The position numbers were made by a program, and so were the translations under genes. The notes under the pieces were generated by a model. That model was not told the DNA's origin and made no database searches. It worked only from the letters and a program-made list of their open reading frames with translations. This document shows, piece after piece, positions 2,378-63,342 of a stretch of 64,000 bases of DNA (the first letter of the stretch is position 1; each line of letters begins with the position of its first letter). Location of the stretch: NCBI GenBank assembly GCA_977017645.1, contig OZ360232.1, positions 58,962,001 through 59,026,000 of the forward strand, read 5' to 3'. This stretch comes from Torpedo marmorata. Lineage: Eukaryota.

Positions 2378-2406
2378 CAGTGTATTTTATGTAGAAAAGG
2401 TAGAAA

Positions 2407-4435: not shown

Positions 4436-4480
4436 CTCATACTTTGATGAAGGGCTCAAGCCCGAAACGTCGGTTATGTA
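4436..4480 (+). ncRNA. Minimal type I hammerhead ribozyme motif (Penelope pLTR)
   Basis: Core TTGATGA 4444-4450, stem II GGGC/GCCC, GAAA 4464-4467, palindromic ACGT stem III, GTC cleavage triplet 4469-4471, weak stem I CATACT/GGTTATG. Confidence 0.65.
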
Positions 4481-5384
4481 TTTCTACCTTTGCTACATAA
4501 AAGACACTGTTTGACCTGCTGAGTTTCTCCAGCATTTGTGTTTTTTACTTCAACCACGGTGTCTACAGATTTTCGTGTTTTGCAAACTGCAGTTTTAACT
4601 TGAATCTATCAATAAAGTGTTTTCTGTGTTACTCAAATCGACTTTTTGCACAGCAGAACTATCAATTGTTTAACATTTCATAATTTTATTGAGGCTTTAT
4701 GCTTTGAAATGACATCATGTCCTTGTCCCCTGGTCTCAGAGCAATGAATCTTTGATTACACATGGGTCAGAAAGGAGCTGTGAATCTTAATGTCCTCCAA
4801 AACCATCTGCTCTGTCTCCTGCGATTTCAAGGGCGTGTCTGATCTGCCTTCAAACACTTTATATTGTGGGGTAATAAATTTCATTGCTCTGAATGACAAA
4901 TCTATATCAGTTATTTATGGAAACATAGAGCTAATGCGACAAGCAGCATTTGGATTATATGGAATCTGATTGTAAAAGCTGCTCCACGTAACATATTATT
5001 TCTCTGATGGTGCATCATAAATATTTTCTCTGATTTCATGAAGTATGGATATATTTAGCAAGAAAATCATGCAACTCCCACCCATAATTGACCTTTAGAA
5101 ATTGATGGTGAGTGGTAGCTCTTTCAACTGAATGAAAATCTGACTTCTTGCACCCCAGGCCTATGGACCTAGTATGTGGGATTGGTATATCACTTGCTCC
5201 TCCTTGGCGTTTTATAAAATAACAATAAAATTCATTTTATCGTTGAATAGTTAAGCAACATCATTCTCAAATCTGAATTTGTCTAAAAGATAACTGGTTA
5301 CAAAAATTAGCTCGAGAAATAGATCAAAGTCACAACTTGAAATATTTTAACTCCTAAATGTGATCTCAATCTGAAATTTGGAAA

Positions 5385-24615: not shown

Positions 24616-27600
24616 TGTTATGGACCATGACTGACCATTTGGACCATTTTGGAGTACACACTGGGACCAGGTACTGAAAGAGTTAATTTGCCCAGGACTT
24701 GGTGTACCCAGAGAGAGAGAGAGACCAGAGAGAGAGAGACAGGCTGTGGAAAAGATACTTTGTTGCGCTTTTGCAAAAGCAGGTGCAAACCTCTGCAAAA
24801 AGCATTGAAGTTCAGTGGCAGTTTGGAGTTGCAAAGGCTAGAGAACACATCAAAATCTAGGCTTGTGCATCCCAAGGGAAAAGGCTGGGAGAATAGCACA
24901 TGGCCTCCTGTCTCAGCAAAATCCTGAGTTAAAGCAACTTTTGTGGTGAACAGGCGTGAGATCAGCGAGACCAGCTGTGAGATCCAAGTACACGCCTCAA
25001 TCAGTGGTCTGGGCTTTATACACACACACACACCTTTTAGATAAGAATAGTGTTTATAGAAGTTTGTAGTGGGGTTAATTGTTGTGAAATTATATGTTTA
25101 ATTGTCTTTAATAAATATAAATTTCAATTTTACCCCTTTTGCATTGCGTCTTCAGTCGTTGCTGGTTTGAATTTTGTAACAAAATTGGGGGCTCGTCCTT
25201 GGATTTGAATTAAAAATCCATCTTGGTAATTGAAGGAATCCCATTCTGGTTTAAGACATTCCTTTTATAAAGCTAATTAAAAGCTAGTGTGTGTGAAACA
25301 AAAAACCAGCAACAATGGATGTAGGAACATTTTTGGAATCACCTGAACCTGATACTTTAAAAAAGGCGAAAAAGGAACAGTTAGTGGCTATAGCAACAGA
25401 GTTGGACATTGCTTCTGTAAAACCATCAATGAAAAAGGCAGAGATTGGGAGAAAAATTGTCAAATACTATATAAAAGAAAAAAAGTTTGAGGAGAGCGTG
25501 TTAGAGCAGTTTCCCAAGGTTAAACCTTCTGAAAACATACAGTTGGAAATAAAAAAATTGGAATTGGAACAAAAGAACAGGGAATTGGAACAAAGGAAAT
25601 TGGAATTGGAGGCAGACAGGGAACAAAATAAATTTGAATTGGAACTGGAACAAAAGAAATTAGACACGGAAATGGAACAAAAGAAATTTGACATGGAATT
25701 GGAATTGGAACAAAAGAGATTAGACTTAGAGAACGATGAGAAAAATAGGAGATATGAGCTGGAAAAGATGAGGTTGGAAAATGAGAGGAGACAAGAAGAG
25801 CACCAAGATCAAATTCGTCATCCTGCTGTGGGGTTTTTGGCTAGTAGAGAAGTTAAGTTGGTTCCTCCATTTGAGGAGGCAGAAATAGATAAGTACTTCC
25901 AACATTTTGAGAAGGTGGCTGTAAAATTAAAATGGCCACAAGACCAATGGTCTCTTATGTTACAAAGTGTAATAAAAGGAAAAGCTCTTACCACGGAGCA
26001 AGCTGTTGATTATGAAACGGTGAAAAAGGCTATACTCCAGGCTTATGAGTTAGTTCCAGAGGCTTAAAGACAGAAGTTTAGAAATTTAAAAAGATCAGCA
26101 ACCCAATCTTACACAGAGTTTGCCTATGAAAAGGTTGTGTGTTTTGACAGGTGGTGCACCTCTAAGGCAGTAAACAATGATTGCAATCAATTGAGAGAAT
26201 TGATAATAATCGAGGCGATCAAAAGGTGTGTTCCTAAGGATATAAAGGCATACTGAGATGAAAAGGGGGTGAAAACTTGGCAAAATTCAGCTAAGTTAGC
26301 AGATGAATATGCTTTAACCCACAAGCCTAAGTGAACATCAGGTAGAATTTTCCAAAAGGTCACTGTGGATAATCCTAAGCAAGTGGAAAGTAAATTTGGA
26401 AGTGGTGTTAAGGAAAGGGATGAAGGAAAGTGGAAAAGGGAAAACCCTTCGGGTCCCATTTGCCACTACTGTAGGAAGTTGTCCAGTGTTGAAAAAGAAG
26501 AGAGAAAAGGATGCAACACCTAATGCTTGTATTCAGAGTGAGAAGAGGCATAACACCCAGAAAGGAATTAAATTTACTGACAAAGTTAGGGATGTATTTA
26601 AACCTTTTTTGACTGATGGTTTTGTTTCAGTTAAGGCAGGATCAAAACAAGTTCCAGTGAAAATCTTGCGAGATACTGGAGCTGCTCAGTCACTTGTGTT
26701 AGATAGTGTCTTGGAGTTTTGTGAAGCTACTGACACCGGTGACATAAATTTGATTAAAGGAATTGGGGGTGAAGTTGAGTCCATTCCTTTGCACAAAATA
26801 GTGTTGGACTCAGACTTGGTGGAAGGACCTGTTATAATAGGAGTGAGATCAGAGTTGCCAGTAGAAGGAGTCTCACTGTTGCTAGGCAATGATTTGGCCA
26901 AGGGTAAAGTAGTTCCAGCAGTGCGAATGACCACTAAGCCAGTCATTGATAAGCCAGAGAAAGACTCTGATATTTATGCGGCATGTGCCATAACCAGGGC
27001 CATGTCTAAGAAAAATGTCACTGCAGAGAAGGCAGTGGAAAATAACTTGGTGAAAGAAAAAGTCAGTGATAATCAAGAACACCTGGAAAAGGTTGAGCAA
27101 TCTCCTATGTTACACCCATCCACTGATAAGACACCTAAAGGCACAGATTTGTCACTATCCAGACAGGAGCTAATAGCAAGGCAAAAGGACGATCCTGATC
27201 TTGCTGAGGTGAGGGATAAGGTTCTCTCTGAAGAGGAGATTAAAAAGGTGCCAGTGGGTTATTATGAAAATGGTGGGGTGTTGATGAGAAAGTGGAGACC
27301 ATGTGATGTTCCTGCCAATGAAGAATGGGCAGTAGTGCAGCAGGTTGTGATCCCTAAAGTATATAGGGATGCAATAATAACTTTGGCTCATAGTACACCC
27401 TTAGGTGGTCACCTTGGGGTGAAGAAAACTATAAGGAAAATAATGAAACAATTTTATTGGCCCACTTTGAGAAGGGAGGTTGTAAGCTTTTGCTGGGCCT
27501 GTCACACTTGTCAGGTGGTGGGTAAACTTAATCAGGGTCCCCCAGTGGCACCCTTACAACCTATCCCTGCTTTCAGTGAGCCTTTCTCGAGAGTGATTGT

Positions 27601-30184
27601 GGACTGTGTTGACCCATTGCCAAAAACCAAAGCGGGGAATGAGTATTTGTTAACAATTATGTGTGCAGCCACCAGATTTCCAGAGGCCATTCCTCTGAGA
27701 AACATTAAAGCAAAGTCAATTGTAAAGGCTATGGTAAAGTTTTTCACCTTGGTCGGTTTGCCAAGGGAAATTCAATCAGATCAGGGCAGTAATTTCATGT
27801 CAGGCGTTTTCCAACAAGTGGTTAATGGACTGGGAGTTAAACAGATTGTATCCTCTGCGTACCATCCAGAAAGTCAAGGGGCCTTGGAGAGGTTCCATTC
27901 GACTTTGAAAAACATGATTAGAACCTATTGTTGTGAGAAGGAAAAGGATTGGGATGAGGGGGTTCATTTGTTGTTATTTGCAGTGAGGGAGTCTGTCCAA
28001 GAATCACTTGGTTTTAGTCCATACGAGTTAGTTTTCGGATATGAGGTGAGAGGTCCTTTAAGATTATTAAAAGAACAGTGGATTAATAGTGATGTGCATT
28101 TAAATCTGTTAGATTATGTTTCCAAATTTAAGGATCGATTGCATAGGGCTTGTGAGATGGCAAAGGAGAATTTAAAGGCCACTCAACAGAGAATGAAGGT
28201 TTGATATGATCGAAAGGCTAAGATGAGAACTTTTAAACCTGGTGAGAACGTATTAGTTCTGTTTCCCATCCATTCAAATCATCTTAGGGCGAGATTTTCA
28301 GGACCATATAGAGTTAAGTCAAAAATTAATGATGTCACCTATGTCATAGAAACACCTAATCGCAGACGAGACACACAGGTCTGTCATGTGAATATGATTA
28401 AGCCATATTTTGTACAGGTGCCGCACAAAGGGACTGAAAATTTACCAGAGGTACTGGTTATTGACAGGGCTAAGGAGGAGACAGTTTCAGAGAGGGTCAT
28501 GGGACTGTTAATTCTCGGGGTTATGTAGTAGGACAGGGGAAGTTGGCGCCAGTAGAGGAAAAGGTTGTGACTATTTCCGAGTTCCCTGTTCCCACTAGTG
28601 AGAAAACTCTGAGGAGGTTCTTGGGAATGATTGGCTACTACCGCAAGTTCTGTAAAAACTTTGCTGATCTTGCGCTCCCTCTCACAAATTTGCTTAGAAA
28701 GAAAGAAAAATTTGTATGGTCAACAGGTTGTCAGGAAGCATTTGTCAAAATGAAAGCCATGTTATGCCACCAACCTGTGCTTAAGTCACCTAATTTAGAA
28801 CAGCCGTTTTCTTTAGCCGTGGATGCCAGCGATGAAGCTGTGGGTGCGGTGCTGTTACAGAAGAAGAACGAAGAGGTCATTGACCATCCGGTATCCTACT
28901 TCTCGAAGAAGTTCAATGATCATCAAAGGAATTATTCAACCATATAAAAAGAGTTGTTGGCTCTTGTGTTGGTTCTACAACACTTTGATGTGTATATCTG
29001 TACAGCTCAAGAACCACTCATAGTGTATACTGACCATAATCCATTGGTTTTTGTTTGTAAAATGAAAAATAAGAATCGACGGTTGTTAAATTGGCGTCTA
29101 ATTTTGCAAGAATATGATTTGGTAATCACATATATAAAAGGGAAAGATAATGTAATTGCTGATTGTCTTTCTAGATGTTAAACTTTATCAATGAAAATAG
29201 TTCATATTTTGTATTTGTGGATGAACATTGTAGATTTTGTTTATATTGTGACACCTCAAATTATTTCCAAAATTTTGTTCTTGCAGACCAAAATTTTCTT
29301 TGTGGGTGGGAGGTGTTATGGACCATGACTGACCATTTGGACTGCGGACGGTCAGCAGGAAGGATGAAGTCTTTTGGAGTACACACTGGGACCAGATACT
29401 GAAAGAGTTAACTTGCCCAGGACTTGGTGTACCCAGAGAGAGAGAGAGAGCAGAGAGAGAGACAGGCTGTGGAAAAGATACTTTGTTGCACATTTGCAAA
29501 AGCAGGTGCAGACCACTGCAAAAAGCAGGCAGTTTGGAGTTGCAAAGGCTAGAGAACACAGCAAAATCTAGGCTTGTGCATCCCAGAGAAAACACTGGAA
29601 GAATAGCACATGGCCTCCTGTCTCAGAGAAATTCTGAGTTAAAAGCAACTTCTGTGGAGAACAGGCGTGAGATCAGCGAGACCAGCTGTGAGATCCAAGC
29701 TTACGCCTCAATCAGTGGTATACTGATCTGAACTCAGCAATCCTTATGAAAACACAAGAAGGGAATGTCATCAGTGAAGAAAAACAAGTATTTGTAAGCA
29801 TAAACAGTCATTGTCTCTCTCCAATGTTCATTCAGAAGTACTTCTACCAGCACACAGAGCTGAATTTGAAACCTGAACTTAGAGAGTGAATTTTGTGGAC
29901 TGTTTTATTCTTTTTTTTGACTGACTTGTTTTTATGACTGACCTGGGGTTTTTTTGGCGAAAGTTTTTCCATTTTTACATAAGGGTTGGGCAGACTGTAA
30001 TGGTCTGGTCTTTACAAACACACACACACACACACACCTTTTAGATAAGAATAGTGTTTATAGACGTTTATAGTGGGGTTAATTGTTGTGAAATTTTATG
30101 TTTAATTGTGTTTAATAAATATAAATTTCAATTTTACACCTTTTGCATTGCGTCTTCTGTCGTTGCTGGTTTGATTTTGTAACA
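24616..30184 (+). mobile_element. Gmr1-like gypsy LTR retrotransposon, copy 1 (RT core deleted)
   Basis: LTRs 24616-25181 (internally deleted) and 29314-30184, both TGTTATGG...TGTAACA. tRNA-Pro PBS TGGGGGCTCGTCC 25186-25198; PPT GGGTGGGAGG. Domain order Gag-PR-IN-(RT end)-RH. Confidence 0.92.
25315..29181 (+). pseudogene. gag-PR-IN-RNaseH polyprotein pseudogene (several stops/frameshifts)
   Basis: LRDTGAAQS protease, H..GGHLG..C..CHTC, SDQGSNF, ALERFH, FSGPY, DASDEAVGAVL, YTDHNPL, ADCLSR. Confidence 0.9.
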
Positions 30185-30859
30185 ATTAGCACAACATAAT
30201 ACTTACATGGCGGTTATCCCGGGTGGTTTGACGTCTATATTGCAACCTCTCGATGTCTGCTTGAACAAGCCATTCAAAGACCACGTGCGTGAAGAGTGGA
30301 ATACATGGATGTCGAGTGCAGAAAAATCATTTACAAAAGGCGGGGCAATGCGTGCTGCATCGCTTGATGTGCTGTGTGACTTCGTGCTCAAGGCATGGGA
30401 CAAAGTGAAAGTAGAGACTATAATAAAATCATTTAAAAAGTGCGGTATCTCTTGTGCAATTGATGGTATGGAAGATGATTTATTGTGGGACACTGACGAC
30501 GAAGCTGAAGACGCCTCATCAGATACTGACTGGGACCCGTACGATGACTGTTTAAACAGTGAGACCCCGGATGTGCTTGCCGAGATCTTTGCCTCAGACG
30601 ATGATAGCGAAAGTGTCTTGTTGTTTTCAATAAAAATGTCAATGAAAATTTGTTGCAGTCGGGTTTTTTTTTGGTTTTCAAGGATCGACTTATACGCCGA
30701 ATCGTGTTTTCAAGGGTCGACTTATACGCCGAATCGGCGTGAACTGGATTTTGAGCTGATTTTAAGGTCTCAAAAGTATATCCGGTGTATAAGTCGACCC
30801 CCGTTTTTTGAGACATTTTTGAGGGTTTCAAGGGTCGACTTATACGCCAAAATATACAG
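30185..30859 (+). mobile_element. pogo-family transposon 3' half (DDE_1 transposase C-terminus + right TIR)
   Basis: VIPGGLTSILQPLDVCLNKPFK; end TCGACTTATACGCCAAAATATACAG|TA. Confidence 0.85.
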
Positions 30860-34416: not shown

Positions 34417-36675
34417 AGTGTTAAGATTGAGATGGTTTGAAAGGATAGTACTAAAATATGTAGATTGCTCGGACTTGAATGATAGAGGGTTGAGTGGCTG
34501 ATGAAGTTAATGGAGTGATTGGTAAGTTGTTTGAATATCAGATTCAATCATATTGCCACCTAATGCTGTCATTAAAATTCTTTCTCTCTGCATTTATTTT
34601 CTGCAGGCTCTCCATTTGACATTAATTTCTGCCATGACTTCTTTCCAATGCCATCTGGAAATATGGTTCAAGGGCCTCATCTCCACACCACCCTGTCACT
34701 ATCATTGCCACACTGCAGACACAGTCTCCCCCTCCTCTCCATTGCCTTGCTCTGAGGCCTCCAGCTTATTATGAGAAACATTGGATTATGCTCTCTTGAA
34801 ATTAATGTTCAGAATGAATTAAATTCCTGACGACACGATGCATTACCCTTTCAAAAGGGTAGTTCTTCCTTGAAGCAATACTGCTGGCATGTAACAAAGA
34901 GTGAAAAAAGCAGTGGCTAAATGGAACATGCACACACTGATGAAAATCAGTGGGCATCATAAATTCCATTCTTGGAGCTGAGCAGTGAACAAGAGTATAT
35001 TAATGGTTAACCTTGATTCCCAGAGCCTTTTACCCTTTTCCAATTTAACCACAATTTACTAATTGTTATATTGTTAGGCTTGGAAATTTGAACCTGATAA
35101 GTAACAAATGTATAAATCCCCTTCTAAAAGACGTTTCCAGCTTTAGATGCAGAAAAAGCATTTGATAGATTAGAGTGGGATTTTTTGTTTAACGTATTAG
35201 AGAAATTTGGACTTGGGACTAATTTTTTAAATTGGATTAAAGCATTATATAATAATCCTAAAGCCAAAGTAGTAACTAATGGACAAATGTCTATGCTATA
35301 TAATTTGACAAGATCTAGTCGACAAGGATGTCCTTTATCCCCAGCTTTATTTGTTCTAGCCATAGAATCACTTGCCCAGAAAATCCGTTCTGATTTACAA
35401 ATTAAGGGTTTTAGGATAGGTCAAAAAGAACATAAAATCAGTTTATTTGCAGATGATATTTTAATATATTTGACTGATCCTGAAATATCTTTGCAAAGAT
35501 TATATATTCAATTGGAGGAATATGGAAAGGTCTCGGGCTATAAAATAAATTGGGATAAAAGAGAAATAATGTCATTGACGGAAGGTGATTATACACATTG
35601 TCAGACAGGTACTCAGTTTAAATGGCCAAAAGAGGGTATTAAATATTTAGGTATACTGTTATGGACCATGACTGACCATTTGGACTGCGGACGGTCAGCA
35701 GGAAGGATGAATTCTTTTGGAGTATACACTGGGGCCAGGTACTGAAAGAGTTAACTTCCCCAGCTACTTGGTGTACCCAGACAAGATACATTGTTGCACT
35801 CTTGGTGTACCCAGACAGAGAGAGAGACAGAGACAGCCTGGACAAGATACATTTGTTTCACTTCTGCAAAAAGCAGAGGCAGATCTCTGCAAAGCAGACA
35901 CAGTTGTGAGTTGCAAGGCTACAAGACACAGCCAAATCCAGGTTTGTGCAGTCAGAGAAAAGACTGACAAAATAGCACATGGCCTCCTGTCTCAGAGAAA
36001 TTCTGAGAAAAAGCAACTTCTGTGGAGAACAGGCGTGAGATCAGCGAGACTAGCTGTGAGATTCAAGCATACGCCTAAATCAGTGGTATACTGATCTGGA
36101 ACTTGCAATCCTTATGAACCTACAAGAAGGGGACATCATCAGAGAAGAAAACAAGTATTTGTAAGCATAAACAGTCATTGACTCTCTCCAACGTTCATTC
36201 AGAAGTACTTCTACCAGACACAGAAAAAGTTGAAGCCTGAACTTAGAGAGTGGATTTTGTCGACTGTATTATCCTTTTTTTTTGACTGACTTGTTTTTTA
36301 TGACTGACCTGGGGTTTTTGGGGAAGGTTTTTCCATTTTTACATAAGGGTTGGGCACAGACTGTAATGGTCTGGGCTTTACACACACACACATACACAGT
36401 TTAGATAAGAATAGAGTTTATAGACGTTTATAGTGGGGTTAATTGTTGTGAAATTATATGTTTACTTGTGTTTAATAAATAATAATTTCAATTTTACCCC
36501 TTTTGCATTGCGTCTTCTGTCGTTGCTGGTTTGATTTTGTAACAAATTGGGGGCTCGTCCTAGGATTTGAATCAAAATCCATCTTGGTAATTGAAGTTTC
36601 CCAGTTTGGTTTAAGGCATTCCTTTTGGTAAAGCTAATTAAAAGCTAGTGTGTGTGTAACAAAAAACCAGCAACA

Positions 36676-39600
36676 ATGGATGTAGAACATTTTATGGAAT
36701 CACCTGAACCTGATACTTTAAAAAAGGCGAAAAAGCAACAGTTAGTGGCTATAGCAACAGAGTTGGGCATTGCTTCTGTAAAACCATCTATGAAAAAGGC
36801 AGAGATTGGGAGAAAAATAGTCAAATACTATATAAAAGAAAAAAAGTTTGAGGAGAGCATGTTAGAGCAGTTTCCCAAGGGTAAACCTTCTGAAAACATA
36901 CAGTTGGAATTAAAGAAATTGGAATTGGAGGCAGCCAGGGAACAAAAGGAATTGGGGGCAGCCAGAGAACAAAATAAATTAGAATTGGAATTAGAACAAA
37001 AGAGATTAGACTTAGAGAACAATGAGAGAAATAGGAAATATGAGTTGGAAAAGATGAGGTTGGAAAATGAGAGGAGACAAGAAGAGCGCCAAGATCAAAT
37101 TCGTCATCCTGCTGAGGGGTTTTTGGCTAGTAGAGAAGTTAGGTTGGTTCCTCCATTTGAGGAGGCAGAAATAGATAAGTACTTCCAACATTTTGAGAAA
37201 GTGGCTGTGAAATTAAAATGGCCACAAGACCAATGGTCTCTTATGTTACAAAGTGTAATAAAAGGAAAAGCTCAACAAGCTTATTCTACTCTTACCACGG
37301 AACAAGCTGCTGATTATGAAACGGTGAAAAAGGCTATACTCCAGGCTTATGAGTTAGTTCCAGAGGCTTATAGACAGAAGTTTAGAAATTTAAAAAGATC
37401 AGCAACCCAATCTTATACAGAGTTTGCCTATGAAAAGGTTGTGTGTTTTGACAGGTGGTGCACATCTAAGGAAGTAAACAATGATTACAATCAATTGAGA
37501 GAATTGATAATAATCGAGGAGATAAAAAGGTGTGTTCCTGAGGATATTAAGGTATACTTAGATGAAAAGGAGGTGAAAATTTGGCAAGATTCAGCTAAGT
37601 TAGCAGATGAATATGCTTTAACCCACAAGCCTAAGTGGACGTCAGGTAGAATTTTCCAAAAGGTCACGGTGGATAATCAGAAGCAAGTGGAAAGTAAATT
37701 TGGAAGTGGTGTTAAGGAAAGGGATGAAGGAAAGTGGAAAAGGGAAAACAATTTGGGTCCCATTTGCCACTACTGTAGAAAGGCTGGTCATATGCTAGCA
37801 AGCTGTCCAGTGTTGAAAAAGAAGAGAGAAAAGGATGCAACACCTAATGCTTGTATTCAGAGTGAGAAGATGCATAACACCCAGGAAGGAGATAAATTTA
37901 CTGACAAAGTTAAAGATGTATTTAAACCTTTTGTGACTGATGGTTTTGTTTCAGTTAAGGCAGGATCAAAACAAGTGCCAGTGAAAATCTTGCGAGATAC
38001 TGGAGCTGCTCAGTCACTTGTGTTAGATAGTGTCTTGGAATTTTGTGAAGCTACTGACACCGGTGACATAAATTTAATTAAAGGAATTGGTGGTGAGGTA
38101 GAGTCCATTCCTTTGCACAAAATAGTATTGGACTCAGACTTGGTGGAAGGACCAGTTATAATAGGAGTGAGATCAGAGTTGCCAGTAGAAGGAGTCTCAC
38201 TGTTGTTAGGCAATGACTTGGCCAAGGGTAAAGAAGTTCCTGCAGTGAGAATGACCACTAAGCCAGTCATTGATAAGTCAGAGAAGGACTCTGATATTTA
38301 TCCGGCATGTGCCATAACCAGGGCCATGTCTAAGAAAAATAACTTGGTAAAAGAAAAAGAAACTGATAATCAAGAAAACCTGGAAACGGTTGAGCTATCT
38401 CCTATGTTACACTCATCCACTGATAAGACACCTAAAGGCACAGATTTGTCACTATCCCGACAGGAGTTAATAGCAAGGCAAAAGGATGATCCTGATCTTG
38501 CTGAGGTGAGGGATAAGGTTCTCTCTGAAGAAGAGATTAAAAAGGTGCCAGTAGGGTATTATGAAAAAAATTGGGGTGTTGATGAGAAAGTGGAGACCAC
38601 GTGATGTTCCTGCCAATGAAGAATGGGCAGTAGTGCAGCAGGTTGTGATCCCTAAAGTATATAGGGATGCAATAATAACTTTGGCTCATAGTACACCCTT
38701 AGGTGGTCATCTTGGGGTGAAGAAAACTATAAGGAAGATAATGAAACAATTTTATTGGCCCAGTTTGAGAAGGGAGGTTGTAAGCTTTTGCCGGGCCTGT
38801 CACACTTGTCAGGTGGTGGGTAAACCTAATCAGGGTCCCCCAGTGGCACCGTTGCAACCTATCCCTGCTTTCAGTGAGCCTTTTTCGAGAGTAATTGTGG
38901 ACTGTGTTGGCCCATTGCCCAAAAACAAAGCGGGGAATGAATATTTGTTAACAATTATGTGTGCAGCCACCAGATTTCCAGAGGCCATTCCTCTGAGAAA
39001 CATGAAAGCAAAGTCAATTGTAAAGGCTATGGTAAAGTTTTTCACCTTGGTCGGTTTGCCAAGGGAAATTCAATCAGATCAGGGCAGTAATTTCATGTCA
39101 GGCGTTTTCCAACAAGTGGTTGATGGACTGGGAGTTAAACAGATTGTATCCCCTGCGTACCATCCAGAAAGTCAAGGGGCCTTGGAGAGGTTCCATTCAA
39201 CTTTGAAAAACATGATTAGAACCTATTGTTGTGAAAAGGAAAAGGATTGGGATGAGGGGGTTCATTTGTTGTTATTTGCAGCGAGGGAGTCTGTCCAAGA
39301 TTCACTTGGTTTTAGTCCATTCGAGTTAGTTTTCGGACATGAGGTGAGAGGTCCTTTAAGATTATTAAAAGAACAGTGGATTAATCGTGATGTGCATTTA
39401 AATCTGTTAGATTATGTTTCCAAATTTAAGGATCGGTTACATAGGGCTTGTGAGATGGCAAAGGAGAATTTAAAGGCCACTCAACAGAGAATGAAGGTTT
39501 GGTATGATCGAAAGGCAAAGATGAGAACTTTTAAACCTGGTGAGAACGTATTAGTTCTGTTTCCCATCCATTCAAATCATCTTAGGGCTAGATTTTCAGG

Positions 39601-40335
39601 ACCCTATAGAGTTAAGTAAAAAATTAATGATGTCACCTTTGTCATAGAAACACCTAATCACAGACGAGACACACAGGTCTGTCATGTGAATATGATTAAG
39701 CCATATTTTGAACAGGTGCCACACAAAGGGACTGAGAATTTACCAGAGGTACTGGTTATTGACAGGGGTAAGGAGGAGACAGATAAAACCAGTTTCAGAG
39801 AGGGTAATGGTACTGTTAATTCTCGGGGTTATGTTGTAGGACAGGGGCAGTTGGCGCCAGTGGAGGCAAAGGTTGTCGCTATTTCCGAGTTCCCTGTTCC
39901 AATTGGTAAGAAAACTCTGAGGAGGTTCCTGGGAATGATTGGCTACTACCGCAAGTTCTGTAAAAACTTTGCTGATCTTGCGCTCCCTCTCACAAATTTG
40001 CTGAGAAAGAAAGAGAAATTTGTATGGTCAACAGGTTGTCAGGAAGCATTTGTCAAAGTGAAAGCCATGTTATGCCACCAACCTGTGCTTAAGTCATCTA
40101 ATTTAGAACAGTCGTTTTCTTTAGCCGTGGATGCCAGCGATGAAGCTGTGGGTCCGGTGCTGTTACAGAAGAAGAACGAAGAGGACATTGAACATCCGGT
40201 ATCCTACTTCTCGAAGAAGTTCAATGATCATCAAAGGAATTATTCAACTATAGAGAAAGAGTTGTTGGCTCTTGTGTTGGCTCTACAACACTTTGATGTG
40301 TATATCTGTACAGCTCAAAAACCACTCATAGTGTA
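36676..40335 (+). pseudogene. gag(SCAN-like CA, CCHC)-PR-IN-RNaseH; RNaseH completes at 45389-45547
   Basis: ATG 36676; YELVPEAYRQKFR..LRELII..AKLADEY; CHYCRKAGHMLASC; DTGA; frameshift in A-run ~38563-38570; TAA 39617-39619. Confidence 0.9.
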
Positions 40336-40768
40336 TGTCAGAAAAGAACTCACACGGAGTCTCAGCAAATGCAGCAGCGGTTGACTTTAATTTCTAACAA
40401 GTCTGCAGAGTTGGGCTCACCCTGCTCCTGCAGGAATTGAGAGCCCCGTTCCATCATTGTAGCAGCCTTTTATACATTTGTTTTACTCACAGGTTACATG
40501 AGTTCACATTCTGTTCCACACATTTCCTAATCTAGATCTTAGGCATTTCATCCATTTGGTTCACGTCCGCCCCTATCGCAAGCTTTTGCCACTACCCTAT
40601 TTCAATTCTTAGCATTTAATCGCAAAGCACTCCCCCTGTCTGGTTTTTGGTTTCCCATGTCTGCACAGGCATGCAGCTGCTATTTCAAAGAGCATTTTAA
40701 AAGCACATTCTAACAGCAGAACATTAACTTTTTCCTAACAATTCCACCCTTTTTCTTTTTAGAATGTG

Positions 40769-41106
40769 CTAAGGGTTCCAGGGGGTCCAACCCCCTCCCT
40801 CTGGGGTTCTTTGGAGCAACATTTTCACAGGGTCAGCAGGTTCCCCTGGTTGCATCACTTGCATCACAATTCGAGTTATAAGCATGCGGAAACAGGGAAT
40901 AACGCAGGGTAACAAGAGGAGCACTAACAATATGCCCCCTACCATTAGCAATGCTGTTTTAATATTTCACCATCATAACACCTGGAGGGGACTACCCCGG
41001 AGAGGACGGCCCCCCTCCTTCCCCTCACTTTCTTTCTTTCCCCATTGGTTGGTACAGAGAGAAAAGCAAGCAATGCTAACAACACAGCAATACAACTCCA
41101 ATTCAT
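40769..41106 (-). pseudogene. env: env remnant: signal peptide + TM anchor/cytoplasmic tail, ectodomain deleted
   Basis: ATG 41106 gives MNWSCIAVLLALLAFLSVPTNG; the out-of-frame piece LLMVGGILLVLLLLPCVIPCFRMLI ends just before the PPT. Confidence 0.75.
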
Positions 41107-41175
41107 TTCGAAAGTCTCTTCAGTTTCACGTGTAAGGGACGCTCAGTAGGTTCACAAGTCCATTCACTGTCCCTT

Positions 41176-44100
41176 TCAGCCACGGGTCCTTTCACCCGAG
41201 AGACGTGTGTCCACCCTTTTTCTTTTGTTCGTACTGCGGCCTCGGTAGTCAATAGGACCTGAAAGGGCCCCTCCCACTGTGGCTGGAGTTTTTTCTGGTT
41301 TCCAAGTCTTCACAAGGACCCAATCACCCGACACAATCTGGTGTAGAGCGAAATCCAATGGGGGAGTCTGGGCCAAAAGCCCCTTTTTCCGCAACTCTGC
41401 AAAGGAACGAGACAGTGCCAGTAAATAGTCCCTAAGAAAGATGTCCCCCCTTTCTAGTGAGGGAAATCCCTCTACCTGACTCCAATATGGCATTCCGAAT
41501 AACATCTCATAAGGAGAGAGTCCAATGTCTTTACGGGGCGCAGTACGAATCCGCAGTAATGCAATAGGAAGACATCTGGTCCAAGGTAATTTTGTCTCCG
41601 TCATCAATTTAGTAAGTTGTGTTTTTAAAGTGCTATTCATTCGCTCGACTCGTCCTGAACTTTGCGGATGCCAAGGAGTGTGTAATTTCCATTTAATACC
41701 TAATGCATCACAGATAAGCTGGTGTGTCTTGGATGCAAAGTGTGTTCCACGATCAGAATCTATTGACCCTATCACACCATATCTCGGGACAATATTCTCC
41801 AACAATATTCTGGCTACTGTTGGGGCATCTGCTTTGGTGGTTGGATATGCCTCTACCCATCTTGTGAAATGGTCCACAATTACCAACAAGTACCGCCACC
41901 TTTGTACCGGGGGCAATTCGGTGAAGTCGATCTGGACTCGGTGGAATGGTCTCAGGGCCAGGGGCTGCCCTCCTCCGGGAGAAGCTCGCATCACCTTCCT
42001 ATTTACCTTTTGGCATATGGGGCATCCCACCACTTCCTGCTGAGCCAGGGTGTAGATTCCTTTACATGCATATTCCCTGAGCACCGTATCACATAGGGCT
42101 TGGACTCCCCAGTGGGTTTGCTGATGTAGCTGCTGAAGAATGTTGCGGGTCACTTCCTTACTCAGTACTTGTCTTCCGTCCGAGATTCTCCATTTGCCAT
42201 CGGCTTCCTTCTGGGCTCCTAGTTGGTTCATTTTATCGATCTCCATTTGCGTAAAGAGCGGTAGTTTCGTCGGCTTTTCTCTCACCGGTATCAGAGTTAA
42301 AAGTTGTACCGATTCTTCAATGGCTGCCCGCTTAGCTTCTTCATCAGCTAGTCGATTTCCTACGGCCTCTGGAGAGTGTCCCTTCTGATGACCCGGAACA
42401 TGTACCACTGCAATTTCTGTGGGTAATGCCAGGGCTTCTAGGGTCAGACCCACCATCTGCTCGTGTGCGAGACCTTTTCCTCGTGCTGTAATCAATCCTC
42501 GCTCCTTCCATATCTTCCCAAACGTATGGACAATGCCATAGGCATACTTAGAATCCGTATATATCGTTCCGACTTCCTCCTCCAGACATTTCAGTGCCCT
42601 CTGGAGGGCATACAGTTCACATGACTGAGCCGACCAGCTGGCAGGGAGCCTGCCTGATTCCACCCTTTTTCCAGTTTTCCCGTCAATGATAGCATATCCG
42701 CTATGTCGTATTCCATCAATGCACCTGGAGGAGCCATCAATATATAACTCCTGTCCCTCTTCCAGGGGCACCTCCTGTAGGTCTTCACGACTCTTGGTCT
42801 GCAGGTCCACCAACTCAAGGCAATCATGCTCTGGCCCTTCCTCTCCTCCCGTCCTGTATAGGAACTGGGCCGGATTGTAGTTGGGATCCTTCGTGAAATT
42901 CAGGTCTTCGCCGGTCATCAGAATGATCTCATATTTCAAGATCCTGGAATCTGTTAGCCACCGGTGGGCCTTTTGTGCCAACAGGGCACTCACTGAGTGT
43001 GGTGAGTACACGGTGATTTTTCCTCCAAACGTCAGTTTCCGTGCTTCCTCCACTAGTACTGCAGTGGCGGCCACGGCTTGGATGCAGGTTGGCCATCCTC
43101 TGGATACCGGATCCAGCATTTTAGATAAAAAGGCTACTGGCTGGCGCTTTCCCCCCTTCTCTTGGGTCAAGACTCCAGACGCGATTCCCTCAGCATTGTT
43201 GACATATAGCTGGAACGGCTTTTCCAAGGCCGGGAGGGCCAGTACCGGTGCTCTTATCAACTGTCCTTTTATTTTTTCGAACAATCTTTCCTCCTCTTTC
43301 GTCCATAGTACCTCCCTTTCTTCTTCTCCTAGCTTTTCATATAGGAACTTAACCAGTGGTGTGTAATTTTCGATCCATATTCGGCAATAGCCCACTAGTC
43401 CCAAAAATTGGCGTATTTCCTTTTTACTTTGTGGTATGGGGAGTTTAATAATTCCAGCCACTCTTTCGGACGTGATGCAGCGATTTCCCTTAGTTAATAC
43501 ATGGCCCAAATATCGGACTTCTTTTTCCACAAATTGTAACTTTGTCTTGGAGACCCTGAGACCTTGCCCCCCTAAGAAATTTAGCAGTCTGATAGTGTCT
43601 TCTCTGATTTCACCCTCCTCAGGTCCGGAAAGAAGTAAATCATCTACATATTGTAGTAACTGGTTTTCAGGACTGCATTGAAACTCAGCCAGTACTTGTT
43701 CCAACATTCGTCCTTCCTCGGTCTGCTTATCCCATCGTGGATCCACTAGGGGAAATTTCTGCTCTCCGTTTACTGCTGCCCCTTGCGGCCTCTCCCTTTC
43801 CCATACCACGATGGCCGCCTGTCTGATCATCTGCCTTTCTTGGGCGGAAAACAACGTTCCCATTATGGCATACATTTCATCCCAGGTATATATGTTGGGA
43901 CCCAAGAACTGGTCTAATTGTTGCGCTAGTCCCATTGGATCTTCAAGTAAATTTTTAGTTTCCTTCTTGAAGGCTCGCACCTCTGTACTTGTTAGAGGCA
44001 CATTCACATACCCGGTCCCTCCGTCGGGACCTCCCATAGGTACCTCTCTTAATGGGCATATTTTTACCTCCTCCTTGCCCTTCTGTTCACGTTTTTCCAC

Positions 44101-44565
44101 GGATCTTGTCACTACCTGTTCTGATCGACTCTCTGCCGGAGGTCCTCTCCCTCTTCTGGTTCCCCTTTCCTCTTCTTTTCTCCCCTCTTCAAATTCCTCC
44201 TCCTCCTCCGAATCTTCAACCTCAGGAGCAGAGGCAGCCTGTGGGTTATTCAGCGGCGGAGGAGTATAGGGAGGAGGTAGATGGTTTAATACTTCCCAGG
44301 GGGCTTCTCCTTCGTCCTTCTTCGTTTGCATTTTAAAACTTCTTGTTGAATCCCCGGGCCCTGGGACCCAACAGGAGGCATATTCCCTTTCATCCGCCTG
44401 CGGATGAGGCTTAGAATTTACATACACATTCAGAGCCTGCCTTACCCATCCCTCATCTGACCCGAATGGTGGCCACCAAACTGACTGCCCTCTTATCGGT
44501 TGCTTTGACCATAAACTACTAAACCCGATCATTTTCATTTTCTGCTTTCCTCTCGTCCGTCCCAA
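41176..44565 (-). CDS. gag-pol: Fused Gag(MA, PPPY, CA N-part)-truncated RT-RNaseH-integrase ORF, 1129 codons
   Basis: WPPFGS, PPPY, PLREVPMGG..YVNVPLTSTEVR..LLEDP, then directly LLQYVDDLLL, YIDGSS, YTDSKY, HQQTH..CPIC, IDFTE, SDRGTHF, GRVERMN. Confidence 0.85.
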   Translation of the reverse strand: MGRTRGKQKMKMIGFSSLWSKQPIRGQSVWWPPFGSDEGWVRQALNVYVNSKPHPQADEREYASCWVPGPGDSTRSFKMQTKKDEGEAPWEVLNHLPPPYTPPPLNNPQAASAPEVEDSEEEEEFEEGRKEEERGTRRGRGPPAESRSEQVVTRSVEKREQKGKEEVKICPLREVPMGGPDGGTGYVNVPLTSTEVRAFKKETKNLLEDPMGLAQQLDQFLGPNIYTWDEMYAIMGTLFSAQERQMIRQAAIVVWERERPQGAAVNGEQKFPLVDPRWDKQTEEGRMLEQVLAEFQCSPENQLLQYVDDLLLSGPEEGEIREDTIRLLNFLGGQGLRVSKTKLQFVEKEVRYLGHVLTKGNRCITSERVAGIIKLPIPQSKKEIRQFLGLVGYCRIWIENYTPLVKFLYEKLGEEEREVLWTKEEERLFEKIKGQLIRAPVLALPALEKPFQLYVNNAEGIASGVLTQEKGGKRQPVAFLSKMLDPVSRGWPTCIQAVAATAVLVEEARKLTFGGKITVYSPHSVSALLAQKAHRWLTDSRILKYEIILMTGEDLNFTKDPNYNPAQFLYRTGGEEGPEHDCLELVDLQTKSREDLQEVPLEEGQELYIDGSSRCIDGIRHSGYAIIDGKTGKRVESGRLPASWSAQSCELYALQRALKCLEEEVGTIYTDSKYAYGIVHTFGKIWKERGLITARGKGLAHEQMVGLTLEALALPTEIAVVHVPGHQKGHSPEAVGNRLADEEAKRAAIEESVQLLTLIPVREKPTKLPLFTQMEIDKMNQLGAQKEADGKWRISDGRQVLSKEVTRNILQQLHQQTHWGVQALCDTVLREYACKGIYTLAQQEVVGCPICQKVNRKVMRASPGGGQPLALRPFHRVQIDFTELPPVQRWRYLLVIVDHFTRWVEAYPTTKADAPTVARILLENIVPRYGVIGSIDSDRGTHFASKTHQLICDALGIKWKLHTPWHPQSSGRVERMNSTLKTQLTKLMTETKLPWTRCLPIALLRIRTAPRKDIGLSPYEMLFGMPYWSQVEGFPSLERGDIFLRDYLLALSRSFAELRKKGLLAQTPPLDFALHQIVSGDWVLVKTWKPEKTPATVGGALSGPIDYRGRSTNKRKRVDTRLSGERTRG

Positions 44566-46782
44566 ATCTCAATTTGCTAACATTCTCCCGAGGGGACTAT
44601 CTGGAGGTACCTTCGGGAATACACCCGAACTCTCCTTCGGCTCCCTTTTCTTTGAGCCTGTCTAGGGGACTATCTGGAGGTACCTTCGGGAATACACCCG
44701 AACTCTCCTTTTGCTCCCTTTTCTTTGAGCCTCCCCTTTCGCTCGGTCACACCTTATCCTAGTAGTACCGTCGTACTCACTTACCCGGTGTGCCGCCCTG
44801 GACCGTCCTTCTACTTCTTCCCAGTCTTCCGCTCTGAGCTGTCCGGATATCACTCGCTCAAGCCGCGTGGGTACGACGAGCAAGGAGTCGGGGACCGCCG
44901 AACTCGGCGGGGTGCACCTTCTCCGATGTCCCTTCTCTCGACCCTCACGACCGGAGTGGGGATCCCGGACGAGGCCCCCAAGTTGTCAGAAAAGAACTCA
45001 CACGGAGTCTCAGCAAATGCAGCAGCGGTTGACTTTAATTTCTAACAAGTCTGCAGAGTTGGGCTCACCCTGCTCCTGCAGGAATTGAGAGCCCCGTTCC
45101 ATCATTGTAGCAGCCTTTTATATATTTGTTTTACTCACAGGTTACATGAGTTCACATTCTGTTCCACACATTTCCTAATCTAGATCTTAGGCATTTCATC
45201 CATTTGGTTCACGTCCGCCCCTATCGCAAGCTTTTGCCACTACCCTATTTCAATTCTTAGCATTTAATCGCAAAGCACTCCCCCTGTCTGGTTTTTGGTT
45301 TCCCATGTCTGCACAGGCATGCAGCTGCTATTTCAAAGAGCATTTTAAAAGCACATTCTAACAGCAGAACATTAACTTTTTCCTAACAGTGTATACTGAC
45401 CATAATCCATTGGTTTTTCTTTGTAAAATGAAAAATAAGAATCGACGGTTGTTGAATTGGAGTCTAATTTTGCAAGAATATAATTTGGTAATCACTCATA
45501 TAAAAGGGAGAGATAATGTAATTGCTGATTGTCTTTCTAGATGTTAAACTTTATCAATGAAAATAGTTCATATTTTGTATTTGTGGATGAACATTGTAGA
45601 TTTTGTTTATATTCTTACACCTCACTTACTTTCCTAAATTTTGTTCTTGCAGACCAAAATTTCCTTTGTGGGTGGGAGGTGTTATGGACCATGACTGACC
45701 ATTTGGACTGCGGACGGTCAGCAGGAAGGATGAATTCTTTTGGAGTATACACTGGGGCCAGGTACTGAAAGAGTTAACTTCCCCAGCTACTTGGTGTACC
45801 CAGACAAGATACATTGTTGCACTCTTGGTGTACCCAGACAGAGAGAAACTAGAGAGAGACTGGATAAGATACATTTGTTTCACTTCTGCAAAAAGCAGGG
45901 GCAGATCTCTGCAAAGCAGACACAGTTGTGAGTTGCAAGGCTACAAGATACAGCCAAGTCCAGGTTTGTGCAGTCAGAGAAAAGACTGACAAAATAGCAC
46001 ATGGCCTCCTGTCTCAGAGAAATTCTGAGAAAAAGCAACTTCTGTGGAGAACAGGCGTGAGATCAGCGAGACTAGCTGTGAGATTCAAGCATACGCCTAA
46101 CTCAGTGGTATACTGATCTGGAACTTGCAATCCTTATGAACCTACAAGAAGGGGACGTCATCAGAGAAGAAAACAAGTATTTGTAAGCATAAACAGTCAT
46201 TGTCTCTCTCCAACGTTCATTAAGAAGCACTTCTACCAGACACAGAAAAAGTTGAAGCCTGAACTTAGAGAGTGGATTTTGTCGACTGCATTATCCTTTT
46301 TTTTTTGACTGACTTGTTTTTTATGACTGACCTGGGGTTTTTGGGGAAGGTTTTTCCATTTTTACATAAGGGTTGGGCACAGACTGTAATGGTCTGGGCT
46401 TTACACACACACACACACCGTTTAGATAAGAATAGAGTTTATAGATGTTTATAGTGGGGTTAATTGTTGTGAAATTATATGTTTACTTGTGTTTAATAAA
46501 TAATAATTTCAATTTTACCCCTTTTGCATTGCGTCTTCTTTCGTTGCTGGTTTGATTTTGTAACAATACGTACAGATAGTAATTTTAAAAGTTATATAAA
46601 TTGAATTATTTATTATTACTACAAAAAATTGATGAAGATTTAAAAAAATTGATTAATTTACCTATAACCTTAGTTGGAAGAGTTAATTGTATAAAGAAGA
46701 ATATATTTCGAAGAATACAATATCGCTTTCAAACATTACCCATTTCAATCCCTCAGAAATGTTTTCAAGAATTAAATAAATA

Positions 46783-58877: not shown

Positions 58878-59398
58878 GTGAAAAACACAAATGCTGGAGA
58901 AACTCAGCAGGTCAAACAGTGTCTTTTATGTAGCAAAGGTAGAAATACATAACCGACGTTTCGGGCTTGAGCCCTTCATCAAAGTATGAAAAAATGCCGG
59001 CAGGCGTCCGAACAGAAGAGTGAGGGGGAAGGGGGGGTGGCAAAGACAGGAGATGATAGGTGGAGAAAGGAGGGAGGGGACAGCAGCAAAGAGGGGGAGG
59101 AGGGATGGCTGGGTAGGTGGAAAAAACAGGAAGGACAGGTGAGGGGGGAGCGGAAGGAAATGACAAGCAGGTTTAGTGGAAAGCAGAAAAGTCAATGTTA
59201 ATGCCATCTGGCTGGAGAGTGCCCAGACGGAAAATGAGATGTTGTTCCTCCAATTTGCGGGTAGTCTGGGTGGGATAGTACATAAGGCCATGGACAGACA
59301 TGTGAGTGTGGAAGTGTGACCCGGAATTGAAATGGTTGGCTACTGGGAGGTCGCTGTTGTTGCGGACGGAGAGGAGGTGCTCAGCAAAGCGGTCTCCC
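58878..59398 (-). mobile_element. Penelope 3' fragment with hammerhead (58946-58989)
   Basis: Near-identical to 2378-2868 and 1030-1081; GIY-YIG C-terminus. Confidence 0.9.
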
Positions 59399-62300
59399 AT
59401 GTACTCACGGTTCCCTTTCGCCATTCCCTGCCCCGATACCTCGGCCACCTTAGTCATAAAGGCCTTCCGCAAACTCTTCACGTTGTTTGGATACCCCTGC
59501 TATATCCATAGTGACCGGAGGTCCTCATTTATGAGTGACAAGCTGCAACAATATCTGCTGGCCAAGGGTATCGCCACTAGCAGGACCACGAGCTATAATC
59601 CATGGGGTAACAGACAAGTAGAAAGGGAGAACGCCACGGTCTGGAAGGCCACACTCTTAGCCCTCAGGTCTAAGGGATTACCAGTCTCCCGCTGGCAAGA
59701 AGTCCTTCCCGAGGCACTCCACTCTATCCGATCCCTGCTATGTACATCCACCAATGCCACACCTCATGAGAGACTCTTTTCCTTCCCTAGGAAGTCGACC
59801 ACCGGGACTACCCTACCAGCATGGCTGACGTCCCCAGGGCCAGTGCTGCTCCGCAAACATGTCAGGAGCAGTAAATACGTCCCAATGGTCGAGAGGGTCC
59901 AATTATTACATGCAAACCCCCAGTACGCTTACGTGGTTTTTCCTGATGGGCGAGAAGACACGATCTCCATCCGGGACCTGGCGCTAGCAGGAGCACTGGA
60001 ACCTGCTCTCGAACATCCCTTTGTTACGGTTACCCTCTTGCCTACCATTTTTTTTTTTTTTTAATATTTTATTTAAATTTTTAAATCACAAAATACATAA
60101 GATAATTTTGCATATATTTAAAAATACATGTGATATACATTTTCTACCCCCCTTCCCACCCTCCCCTCCCTAACCCCTATATCCCCACTACTCTAAAAAT
60201 AAAATATAGTAAAAGAGAAAAAGAAAAAGGAAAGAGAAAAATAGAGTGAGGAGACAACAAACTTCAAACTAATTCTACCATAGAGGTTATTTTCGCCAGT
60301 GGATCCGATATCTAGAGAATTTAAATTGTTAAACCCATAATTCTCATATATGGGCCTCAAACTTTCAAGAAAAAATGATATTTATTTCGCAAATTGTAAG
60401 TAATTTTTTCTAATGGTATACATGAATGTAACTCTGCATGCCATCGTTCTAAATTTAAATCCACATCTGACTTCCAAGTAATAGCTATACACTTTTTCGA
60501 AACTGCTAATACTATACGTAAAAATTCTACTTGGTACATATTTAATCTATTTCTAATACTAAATTTTTTAATATCTCCAAATAAAAATAACATAGGATCC
60601 ATTGTAAACCCAACATTAAAAATTCTCTCTAAAAAATTCTTAACTTTCAACCAAAAATCTTGAATTTTTGAACATAACCATGTACAATGAACAAAAGAAC
60701 CTATTTCACATTTACATCTAAAACACATATCTGATAACGCTGGATTAAATTTCTTCAATTTTTTAGGTGTTAAATATAATTGATGAAAAAAATTATATTG
60801 TACTAATCTATATCTAACATTAATAACTTTAGTCATACTTAATTTACATAAGTCTTTCCAATGATTTTCATCTATATTAACATTTAAGTCTAGTTCCCAT
60901 TTTAATCTAGATTTATGTAACCCTACTTTAGACATCTTTCTCTGAAATAATTTATACATTTGTGATTTAAACTTATTAATATTAACTTTAGTAATTAACA
61001 ATTCCAATTCATTTTGTCTTGGTGCTATTAATTCATTCCCTAACATCTCAGTCAAAAAGGCTTTAACTTGAAAATAAACTAACATTGTATTGTCTAGTAT
61101 ATTAAATTTTTCTTTTAACCTTTGAAAAGTAACGAATCTACCAGCTTCAAAACAATCTTTTAAGGTCTTAATTCCCTTTTGAAACCATAATTTAAGTAAC
61201 TGATTATCAATAGAAAATGGTATAAGCAGATTTTGGTATATTGGTGTATTTAAAGAAATTGATCCTTTCCGACCTATCTCTTTATCTACCTGTGACCAAA
61301 TTTCCAACAAATGTTTAATAATTGGTGAATTTTTCTTTTTAGCTAATAACAATTTAGAATTCCACTTATAAATAATCTCTTCTTTATGTATTTCTCCTAT
61401 ATTATTCAATTCTATATTAATCCAAGCAGAAGATTTAGTTGAATCAAAAAATTCATTAATACATTTTAATTGAGCTACTTTGTAATAATACTGAAAATTA
61501 GGAAGTTGCAATCCTCCCATCTCATAATTCCATGTTAATTTATCTATACTTACTCTTGCCAACTTTCCTTTCCATAAAAATTTCCTAATAACAAATTTTA
61601 AATCCTTAAAAAATTTATTTGGGATACCAAAAGGAATCGATTGAAAAAGATATTGAATTCTTGGAAAAACATTCATTTTAATACAGTTTACTCTTCCCAT
61701 CAAAGTTATAGGTAAGTCTTTCCAAAGTTCTAAGTCTTTTTTTATTTTCATAAATAAAGGTATATAGTTTAATTTATACAAATTTTCCAGCTTTGTATCC
61801 ACTTTAACTCCCAAATATTTAATACTTTCTTTAGCCCATTTAAACTCCGTAACCTCTCTACATCTAGTACAATCCCCTTGAGATAAAGCCAAAATCTCAC
61901 TTTTATCTGAATTAATTTTATATCCAGATATCTCACCATATTCTATCAATATAGTAGCCAATTGCTGAAGTGATGTGACAGATTTTGTCATATATATTAA
62001 TACATCATCTGCAAACAAGCTAATCTTATGTTCTTCCCTACCAACTTTTATACCCATTATATTTATATCTTCTCTAATCATTTCAGCTAAAGGCTCTCTT
62101 ACCAAAACAAATAAAGCAGGTGACAGAGGGCATCCCTGTCTTGTTGATCTTGATAATAAGAATTTTTGCGATATTTGTCCATTTGTAACTACTTTAGCTG
62201 TAGGTTCTTTGTATATAGTTTTAATCCAATTTATAAAAATATTTCCAAAACCAAATTTTTCCAAAACCTTAAATAAAAAATTCCACTCTACCCTATCAAA

Positions 62301-63342
62301 AGCCTTCTCTGCATCCAATGTTACCACTAATGGTAAATCTTGTTTCTTCTTATATAAATTAATCAAACTTATCAATCTAGCTATATTATCTTTCGAATAT
62401 CTATTCTTAATAAATCCAGCTTGATCTGAATGTATCAAGTTTGGTAAATATTTAGCTAATCTATTTGCTAAAATTTTTGCCATTATTTTATAATCTACAT
62501 TTAACAATGAAATAGGCCTATAAGACTCAGTTTTCAACACATCTCTATCTTTCTTTGGTATAACTGTAATAATAGCATTTAAAAATGTCTTCGGTAATAA
62601 ATGAGTTTCAGTAACTTGATTCAATACCTCCATATATAAAGGTATCAATAAATCTTTAAATTCTTTATAAAATTCTACTGGAAACCCATCATCACCCGGA
62701 GATTTACCACTTTTCAACGTCGATATTGCCTCAGTAACTTCTCTCATCGTAACAGGTAGGTCCAAAGAATATTTACTCTGAACATTCAGTTTAGGTAGAG
62801 TAATTTTAGATAAAAATCTATTAATCTTCATATCATCATGATCGATCTTGCCTACCATTGAGGAAACACAAGAGGCACCACTCAATTCCAGCACGACATC
62901 ACATGCACCAGCATTTTCGCGATCACCAGACGTGGCAGTACCCCAGATCAGGCAGGAGGTAGCTCCGCCACCTGCCCCATCACCACAAGTACTGCGCCGA
63001 TCACAATGGCAGACTCGACCGCCTGATCGACTTGATCTGTAATGTTAATGTTAATATAAATGTTATTATACACTTCCCCCGCTGGACTCTTTTAAAAAGG
63101 AGGGGTGAATGTGGTAAACCACTGTATATGGATTGTGGGCTGGTGATAAGTCTGGACATGCCCTGCTGACTGTCCCAGTGGCTCCTCCCACAAACCCCCT
63201 TGAATAAAGGCCATTGTGCCACGGCTCCTCCCCCAGTCCGGGACAGAACATCAGCACGAATGTAGCTCCATTCTTTTGCTAATAAAAGCCTTTCAGTTCT
63301 TGTGTAACTTCTAGTCTTTTGGAGTTATTGATGGGCTCATCA
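59399..63342 (+). mobile_element. Gypsy element 3' part: integrase + PPT + 3' LTR (63110-63342), split by L1
   Basis: YSRFPFAIPC, HSDRRSSFMS, QVEREN; PPT AAAAAGGAGGGGTGAA; TGTGG...TCA LTR with AATAAA. Confidence 0.85.
60050..62845 (-). mobile_element. Young 5'-truncated L1 (RT + CCHC)
   Basis: ORF of ~830 L1 codons: KSPGDDG, YRPISLLN, LDAEKAFD, RQGCPLSP, LFADD. PolyA and 14-bp TSD TCTTGCCTACCATT (60036-60049, 62846-62859). Confidence 0.95.

Follow-up and report, generated by a model that had tools for sequence, protein, structure and literature searches.

A defective class I endogenous retrovirus with an in-frame Gag-Pol fusion in Torpedo marmorata, a candidate for copying in trans

Introduction

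Defective endogenous retroviruses (ERVs) that are mobilised with the proteins of complete relatives have been described in mice and cattle. In the class II subfamily IAP 1-delta-1 of the mouse, which is multi-copy and active, an internal deletion of 1.9 kb leaves one Gag-Pol fusion frame, env is absent, and the fusion yields a protein that promotes retrotransposition in cis, while Gag and Pol are also needed in trans (PMC6466679, PMC7411935). Similarly, the D-type copies of cattle ERVK[2-1-LTR], also class II, lack functional genes and are mobilised by complete copies, as shown by de novo insertions (PMC10924933); we further drew on PMC4977317, PMC11089739 and PMC10587355. Here, we describe a defective class I ERV of 5,053 bp (positions 40336-45388, minus strand) in a 64,000-nt stretch of the genome of the ray Torpedo marmorata (GenBank assembly GCA_977017645.1, contig OZ360232.1, positions 58,962,001 to 59,026,000, forward strand; hereafter the window, in whose numbering all positions are given). 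We argue that it was probably copied in trans by a complete relative.

Among human ERVs, HERV-IP and HERV-ADP belong to the supergroup HERVIPADP, with chicken ChiRV1 as a relative; HERV-I proper is placed in another supergroup, HERVERI (PMC4724089). One survey described gamma-like retroviruses as limited to amniotes (PMC6001957), and PMC4422223 cites a single sequence, from lemon shark, as human-ERV-like in a cartilaginous fish. Our literature search returned no account of this family of batoid (ray and skate) proviruses or of its deletion forms, although the supplements of large surveys might contain one. Taken by itself the element adds another defective provirus, of a type already known, from a group of hosts that is under-described.

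Results and discussion

The provirus retains its cis signals

The element displays a class I layout, with long terminal repeats (LTRs), a target-site duplication, a primer binding site, a polypurine tract upstream of the 3' LTR and remnants in gag-pol-env order (Table 1). Its class I domains, detected with Pfam, are a Gag_p30 capsid, a connection domain with a second RNase H, and an MLV-type integrase tail. A preliminary description of this DNA had reported near-identical LTRs of 405 bp with one difference, and on re-measurement the two repeats, each with TG...CA termini, indeed differ at 1 of 405 positions (40475/45123). The difference had been placed in the TATA box; it lies just upstream, and the TATAAAA core is intact in both LTRs. 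GTGTA is present at each end of the provirus and occurs once at the corresponding position of a sister Gypsy copy (near 29022), an empty site that confirms the proposed 5-bp target duplication. The tRNA-Pro assignment of the primer binding site also holds: apart from one extra base, the site matches the 18-nt Pro-type entry tabulated by Vargiu et al.

A Gag-Pol fusion frame that is broken at both ends

The interior carries an open frame of 1,130 codons (41176-44568, minus strand) in which, according to Pfam, positions 5-96 of the 201-position Gag_p30 model abut positions 133-204 of the 205-position reverse transcriptase (RT) model RVT_1, followed by the connection domain, RNase H and integrase. 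The YVDD motif, four acidic motifs of RNase H and the HHCC and DDE motifs of integrase are kept, and a motif check of the long frame found no LPQG, RT motif A, protease motif or zinc knuckle. Domain and motif checks thus agree with the original proposal that capsid is joined in frame to RT just before YVDD, with loss of the capsid C-terminus, nucleocapsid, protease and first half of RT. Relative to P0135 and P0137 the element lacks 187-207 Gag codons, and relative to P0215 about 290 Pro-Pol codons; from these relatives we estimate the size of the deletion at about 1.45-1.55 kb. Matches to relatives on the Gag side and on the RT side meet or overlap by no more than two codons at 43708-43713, which would fit a template jump at a short repeat. 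Canonical splicing was considered as another candidate origin of the junction.

The Gag-RT'-RNase H-integrase frame is therefore real, but the preliminary description overlooked that both of its ends are broken. In relatives Gag starts about 40 residues upstream of the long frame, at a position where no start codon is found here. Instead, the Gag 5' region contains a 73-nt tandem duplication (44591-44732), the units of which differ at 2 of 69 nt, and an in-frame stop (44569-44571) precedes the long frame. The first ATG past the primer site opens a frame of only four codons and the next in-frame ATGs lie at 44538 and 44532, so that any product of the long frame is predicted to be without the N-terminal part of Gag. 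The C-terminal domain of integrase (MLVIN_C; E 5.8e-06, under the curated cut-off of the model), at the opposite end, is in a different frame, the break falling at an A-run (41289-41294).

Env is reduced, in line with the preliminary description, to a putative signal peptide and a transmembrane (TM) tail. The 5' remnant comprises 53 codons, with a hydrophobic N-terminal stretch that we judge to be signal-peptide-like, and the 3' remnant, in a different frame, encodes a TM/cytoplasmic tail identical to a retroviral TM at 42 of 62 residues. A protein search with this tail gave two matches, of which one, a 204-aa partial TM, was useful.

An anatomy of this kind might in principle arise during assembly, through collapsed LTRs or mis-joined reads that mimic deletions, with the small frame break as a homopolymer error. 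The integrase break does coincide with the A-run, and a sequencing error confined to that run is possible. However, the LTRs are not identical, the target duplication is clean when checked against the empty site, the two separate deletions have intact joins and the window contains no N, and we therefore hold an assembly artefact to be very unlikely.

The lesions probably preceded insertion

The single LTR mismatch bears on when these lesions arose. At 2.2e-10 per year, the rate assumed for sharks by Han, it corresponds to about 5.6 million years (0.14-31), and at the epaulette shark rate of 7e-10 to 1.8 million generations (0.04-9.8). The provirus, described earlier as very young, is accordingly young by molecular clock and not necessarily in years. 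By the same clock, the 4,243-bp interior would have gained about 5 substitutions (0.13-29) after insertion. Against this expectation stand two deletions (put at more than 1 kb), the 73-nt duplication, a lost start codon, a frame break and a stop. As substitutions greatly outnumber large deletions in general, the lesions are probably older than the insertion, in line with the preliminary description. The duplication units are also more diverged than the LTRs (2/69 against 1/405; one-sided Fisher p 0.057, which is weak), a weak hint that the duplication predates insertion. The element falls outside the currently invading ERVs (ERVi), which are defined by identical LTRs, intact genes and insertion polymorphism (PMC10435555), given its LTR mismatch and its broken genes.

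A candidate signature of older decay, an excess of changes at conserved Pol sites, was not found. Of 206 sites that are invariant in an 11-row panel, 6 are changed in the element, within the range of its relatives (5/158 to 12/205 in six relatives, with one at 11/147), which places the deleted form near a working ancestor. In matrix, 2 of 14 invariant sites are changed, compared with 0-1 in relatives.

These data also bear on the simplest alternative, namely that a single provirus was intact at insertion and decayed in place, its age being understated by the LTRs owing to a slow clock or gene conversion. Several million years, or nearly two million generations, would allow for this at the rates given above, Vargiu et al. 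caution that low LTR divergence may mislead (PMC4724089), and a second copy was not found in stored proteins or JGI metagenomes. However, the clock argument is a relative one, in which three structural lesions are weighed against the 5 or so substitutions expected, and the lack of excess Pol decay speaks against an interior much older than the LTRs indicate. We therefore consider decay in place unlikely.

Probable copying in trans by a complete relative

With its cis signals present and its trans functions absent, the element is non-autonomous in anatomy, as first proposed. Because the capsid C-terminus, nucleocapsid, protease and half of RT are missing, integration would have been possible only with helper proteins. 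We consider it reasonably probable that the provirus was copied in trans by a complete relative. According to this model, an RNA that kept the LTRs, primer site and polypurine tract, and from which neither particles nor protease nor RT could be made, would have been packaged, reverse-transcribed and integrated by proteins of that relative. The two large deletions would have occurred before insertion, probably through RT template jumps at short repeats, and the 3.4-kb open frame would likely be a passive leftover, encoding at most a headless, RT-dead protein without the integrase C-terminal domain.

By comparison with the systems outlined above, this pattern would already be familiar from mice and cattle, and the element would not be of a new kind; IAP 1-delta-1 is the closest analogue. 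Like that subfamily, the provirus combines an in-frame internal gag-pol deletion (about 1.5 kb here) and one fusion frame with the loss of env, the retention of cis signals and a need for Gag and Pol in trans. In contrast to the translated class II fusion of the mouse, the element is class I, has lost its Gag start, has its integrase tail off-frame and is known from sequence alone. It also differs from the cattle D-type copies, in which no gene is functional, in keeping a fused frame.

Several observations weigh against copying in trans. No helper virus was seen, and the capsid/RT junction occurs in no stored protein besides the element's own and, as an exact 29-nt pattern, has 0 matches in JGI metagenome contigs, neither collection holding ray assemblies as such. 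Likewise, a capsid query against metagenome contigs gave 75 pattern matches of which 0 were confirmed, and an integrase query against viral contigs gave 0 matches. A search of sequencing runs listed four, two of which, under two organism labels, contain 0.66 and 0.43 of the sampled words; one of these may be the source sample, so that we give them no weight as support, and no RNA run was among those listed. The absence of excess Pol decay gives no sign of a long-lived, drifting lineage, and, given slow shark rates, an insertion that is perhaps millions of years old may have had more time to acquire deletions. In favour of the model, six ray gene models contain further Gag-Pol joins of three kinds, every one of them present at two loci whose chromosomes differ in length (P0098/P0004; P0133/P0252, Hypanus; P0140/P0253, Narcine), and two of the three break near the same capsid position as the element. 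These joins may be annotation introns rather than real shared deletions, and this artefact reading stays live because other models (P0178, P0215, P0266 and the swallow model P0002) skip other parts. Should the junctions of the element be shared by many loci, the spread of a parasite of a parasite could be counted in a vertebrate with a slow clock.

The open frame need not be functional

The length of the open frame calls for no selection. With 5.4% of the possible substitutions in the frame creating a stop, 1,120 codons would remain open in the absence of selection with a probability of 0.80 (0.29-0.99), and an in-frame join has a prior of one in three; openness is thus expected by chance. The preliminary description had suggested that the frame supplies its own integrase and RNase H or acts as an interfering protein. 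This proposal is not borne out, given the loss of the Gag start and N-terminus and of the integrase C-terminal domain from a frame that would be open by chance alone.

A related alternative is a subfamily resembling IAP 1-delta-1, in which translation of the fusion aids mobilisation of its own RNA, or provides RNase H or integrase, and the frame is under selection. In favour of this idea, the junction is in frame, the catalytic motifs of RNase H and integrase are intact, in-frame ATGs are available at 44538 and 44532, there is a precedent in the mouse, and in-frame joins recur in ray gene models, two of the three near the same capsid position. Yet the start and N-terminus of Gag are gone, the four-codon frame lies ahead of the usable ATGs and the integrase C-terminal domain is off-frame, and since gene models are in frame by construction they cannot reveal a bias; together with the expected openness, this makes a selected fusion, and a functional frame altogether, unlikely in our estimation. 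There is also little likelihood in a wider version of this idea, in which an old and undescribed ray lineage of HERV-IP/ADP-like viruses repeatedly yields in-frame Gag-Pol deletion forms at the same capsid position (in Hypanus, in Narcine and here), which would spread in trans since translation of the fused frame helps the RNA, a class I parallel to IAP 1-delta-1. We continue to favour a passive frame carried along in an RNA copied in trans.

A batoid clade related to HERV-IP and HERV-ADP

To place the element we used three protein searches (92 matches among 6,574 candidates, 118 among 1,192 and 179 among 7,999, the best 120 of the 179 being inspected). No exact copy of the long-frame protein is present in the collection searched. 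Among the matches listed, the closest Pol proteins are RefSeq models from Hemitrygon (85-86% identical), Hypanus (80%), Narcine (70-72%) and Leucoraja (67%), so that the nearest proteins are stingray models, in accordance with the cartilaginous-fish origin proposed at the outset; by themselves these relatives would make a ray the probable host. A Pol tree was built by a quick method from 40 rows hand-picked among the matches, with midpoint rooting and SH-aLRT (Shimodaira-Hasegawa-like approximate likelihood ratio test) as its only support. In this tree, the element groups with Hemitrygon (99), then with Hypanus and Narcine (100), then with Leucoraja and one further row (99), forming one clade with the batoid model family, none of whose stored proteins has the capsid/RT junction of the element. 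This ray clade is nested among rows from birds, squamates, echidna and bamboo shark (100), separate from MLV-like and epsilon-like rows.

Several further features of the tree and its matches deserve mention. Within the rays the skate is outermost, followed by the electric ray and stingrays, an order that we take to match host relationships loosely. The row from bamboo shark falls with echidna and other rows, so that the clade contains no fewer than two chondrichthyan lineages. Among the little-skate models listed, five of 882 aa belong to a single cluster (P0015; 90%, 16 members), which points to a multi-copy and little-decayed skate family. In a bamboo-shark model (P0263) a Gag of the element's family is joined to RNase H sequence of Gypsy type, which may reflect a further insertion into a Gypsy or a wrongly joined model, and retroviral Pol proteins labelled Klebsiella pneumoniae by NCBI (P0124-P0129) fall near bird ERV rows and are probably host contamination of those assemblies.

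Motifs and markers suggest that the clade is nearest to human HERV-IP and HERV-ADP. By eye, a capsid stretch is identical to the HERV-ADP consensus at about 61 of 90 residues, and PLREVP occurs twice in the text of the supplementary consensus file, as consulted with its long strings truncated, in the Gag of HERV-IP and of HERV-ADP (PMC4724089). Among the markers listed for HERV-IP, a primer binding site of type P or I and a GPY/F domain are present and dUTPase is absent, although the deleted part could have held one; the zinc-knuckle region is deleted in this copy, and relative P0135 has one knuckle. The element thus resembles HERVIPADP in capsid, PLREVP, Pro primer and GPY/F-type integrase tail, and the TM relative P0264 has a GPATWA motif that is also present in the supplementary env files (PMC4724089). 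It differs in its ray host and in the deletion of zinc knuckle, protease and env ectodomain. Since the tree includes no named human reference, membership of HERVIPADP rests on these motifs and markers. Accordingly, the earlier assignment to HERV-I/IP-like class I viruses holds for class I and for a HERV-IP/HERV-ADP-like capsid but not for HERV-I proper, given a Pro rather than an Ile primer and the occurrence of both PLREVP matches in HERV-IP and HERV-ADP. The value of the family as a marker lies in a HERV-IP/ADP-like clade common to rays, a shark, birds, squamates and echidna.

Table 1. Features of the provirus and its insertion site (window positions)
Feature	Position	Strand	Remark
5' LTR	44984..45388	-	405 nt; TATA box; ATTAAA poly(A)-like signal (about 45039)
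3' LTR	40336..40740	-	1 mismatch to 5' LTR (40475)
Target-site duplication, left copy, GTGTA	40331..40335	+	single at empty sister site
Target-site duplication, right copy	45389..45393	+	single at empty sister site
tRNA-Pro primer binding site	44962..44980	-	one additional base
Leader splice-donor-like site (putative)	44776..44787	-	pattern match
Broken Gag 5' end	44569..44745	-	no start; 73-nt tandem duplication; stop
Remaining matrix, proline-rich region, N-terminal half of capsid	43708..44568	-	first usable ATGs 44538, 44532
In-frame capsid/RT deletion junction	43705..43713	-	Gag-side and RT-side matches meet or overlap
RT second half (YVDD), connection domain, RNase H, integrase zinc finger and DDE core	41295..43707	-	
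Integrase C-terminal domain (MLVIN_C)	41103..41294	-	off-frame to long frame; A-run break 41289-41294
Env 5' remnant, 53 codons	40945..41106	-	signal-peptide-like
Env 3' remnant, membrane anchor and tail	40769..40966	-	off-frame to 5' remnant
Polypurine tract	40744..40760	-	
Host Gypsy (integrase before RT, LTRs 97.5% alike)	35657..46566	+	provirus inserted in its RNase H region

The host Gypsy and neighbouring elements

The provirus interrupts a Gypsy element in its RNase H region and is therefore younger than its host. A sister Gypsy copy (24647-30186) is 92% alike to the host Gypsy and colinear with it over 4 kb, and we take both to be Gmr1-like. In both copies the integrase tail runs almost directly into the RT thumb and RNase H, and Pfam gives no RVT_1 match in the frame of the host Gypsy. 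Both copies probably have an RT deletion in common and would thus represent a non-autonomous Gypsy subfamily, here host to a non-autonomous ERV.

Elsewhere in the window, an open retrotransposon frame of 895 codons (60357-63044, minus strand), presumably L1-like, is accompanied by several decayed copies. Two inverted pieces at 2375-4548, which are 95% alike and carry a GIY-YIG-like tail, have a third counterpart near 58878-59399 and are assumed to be Penelope-like.

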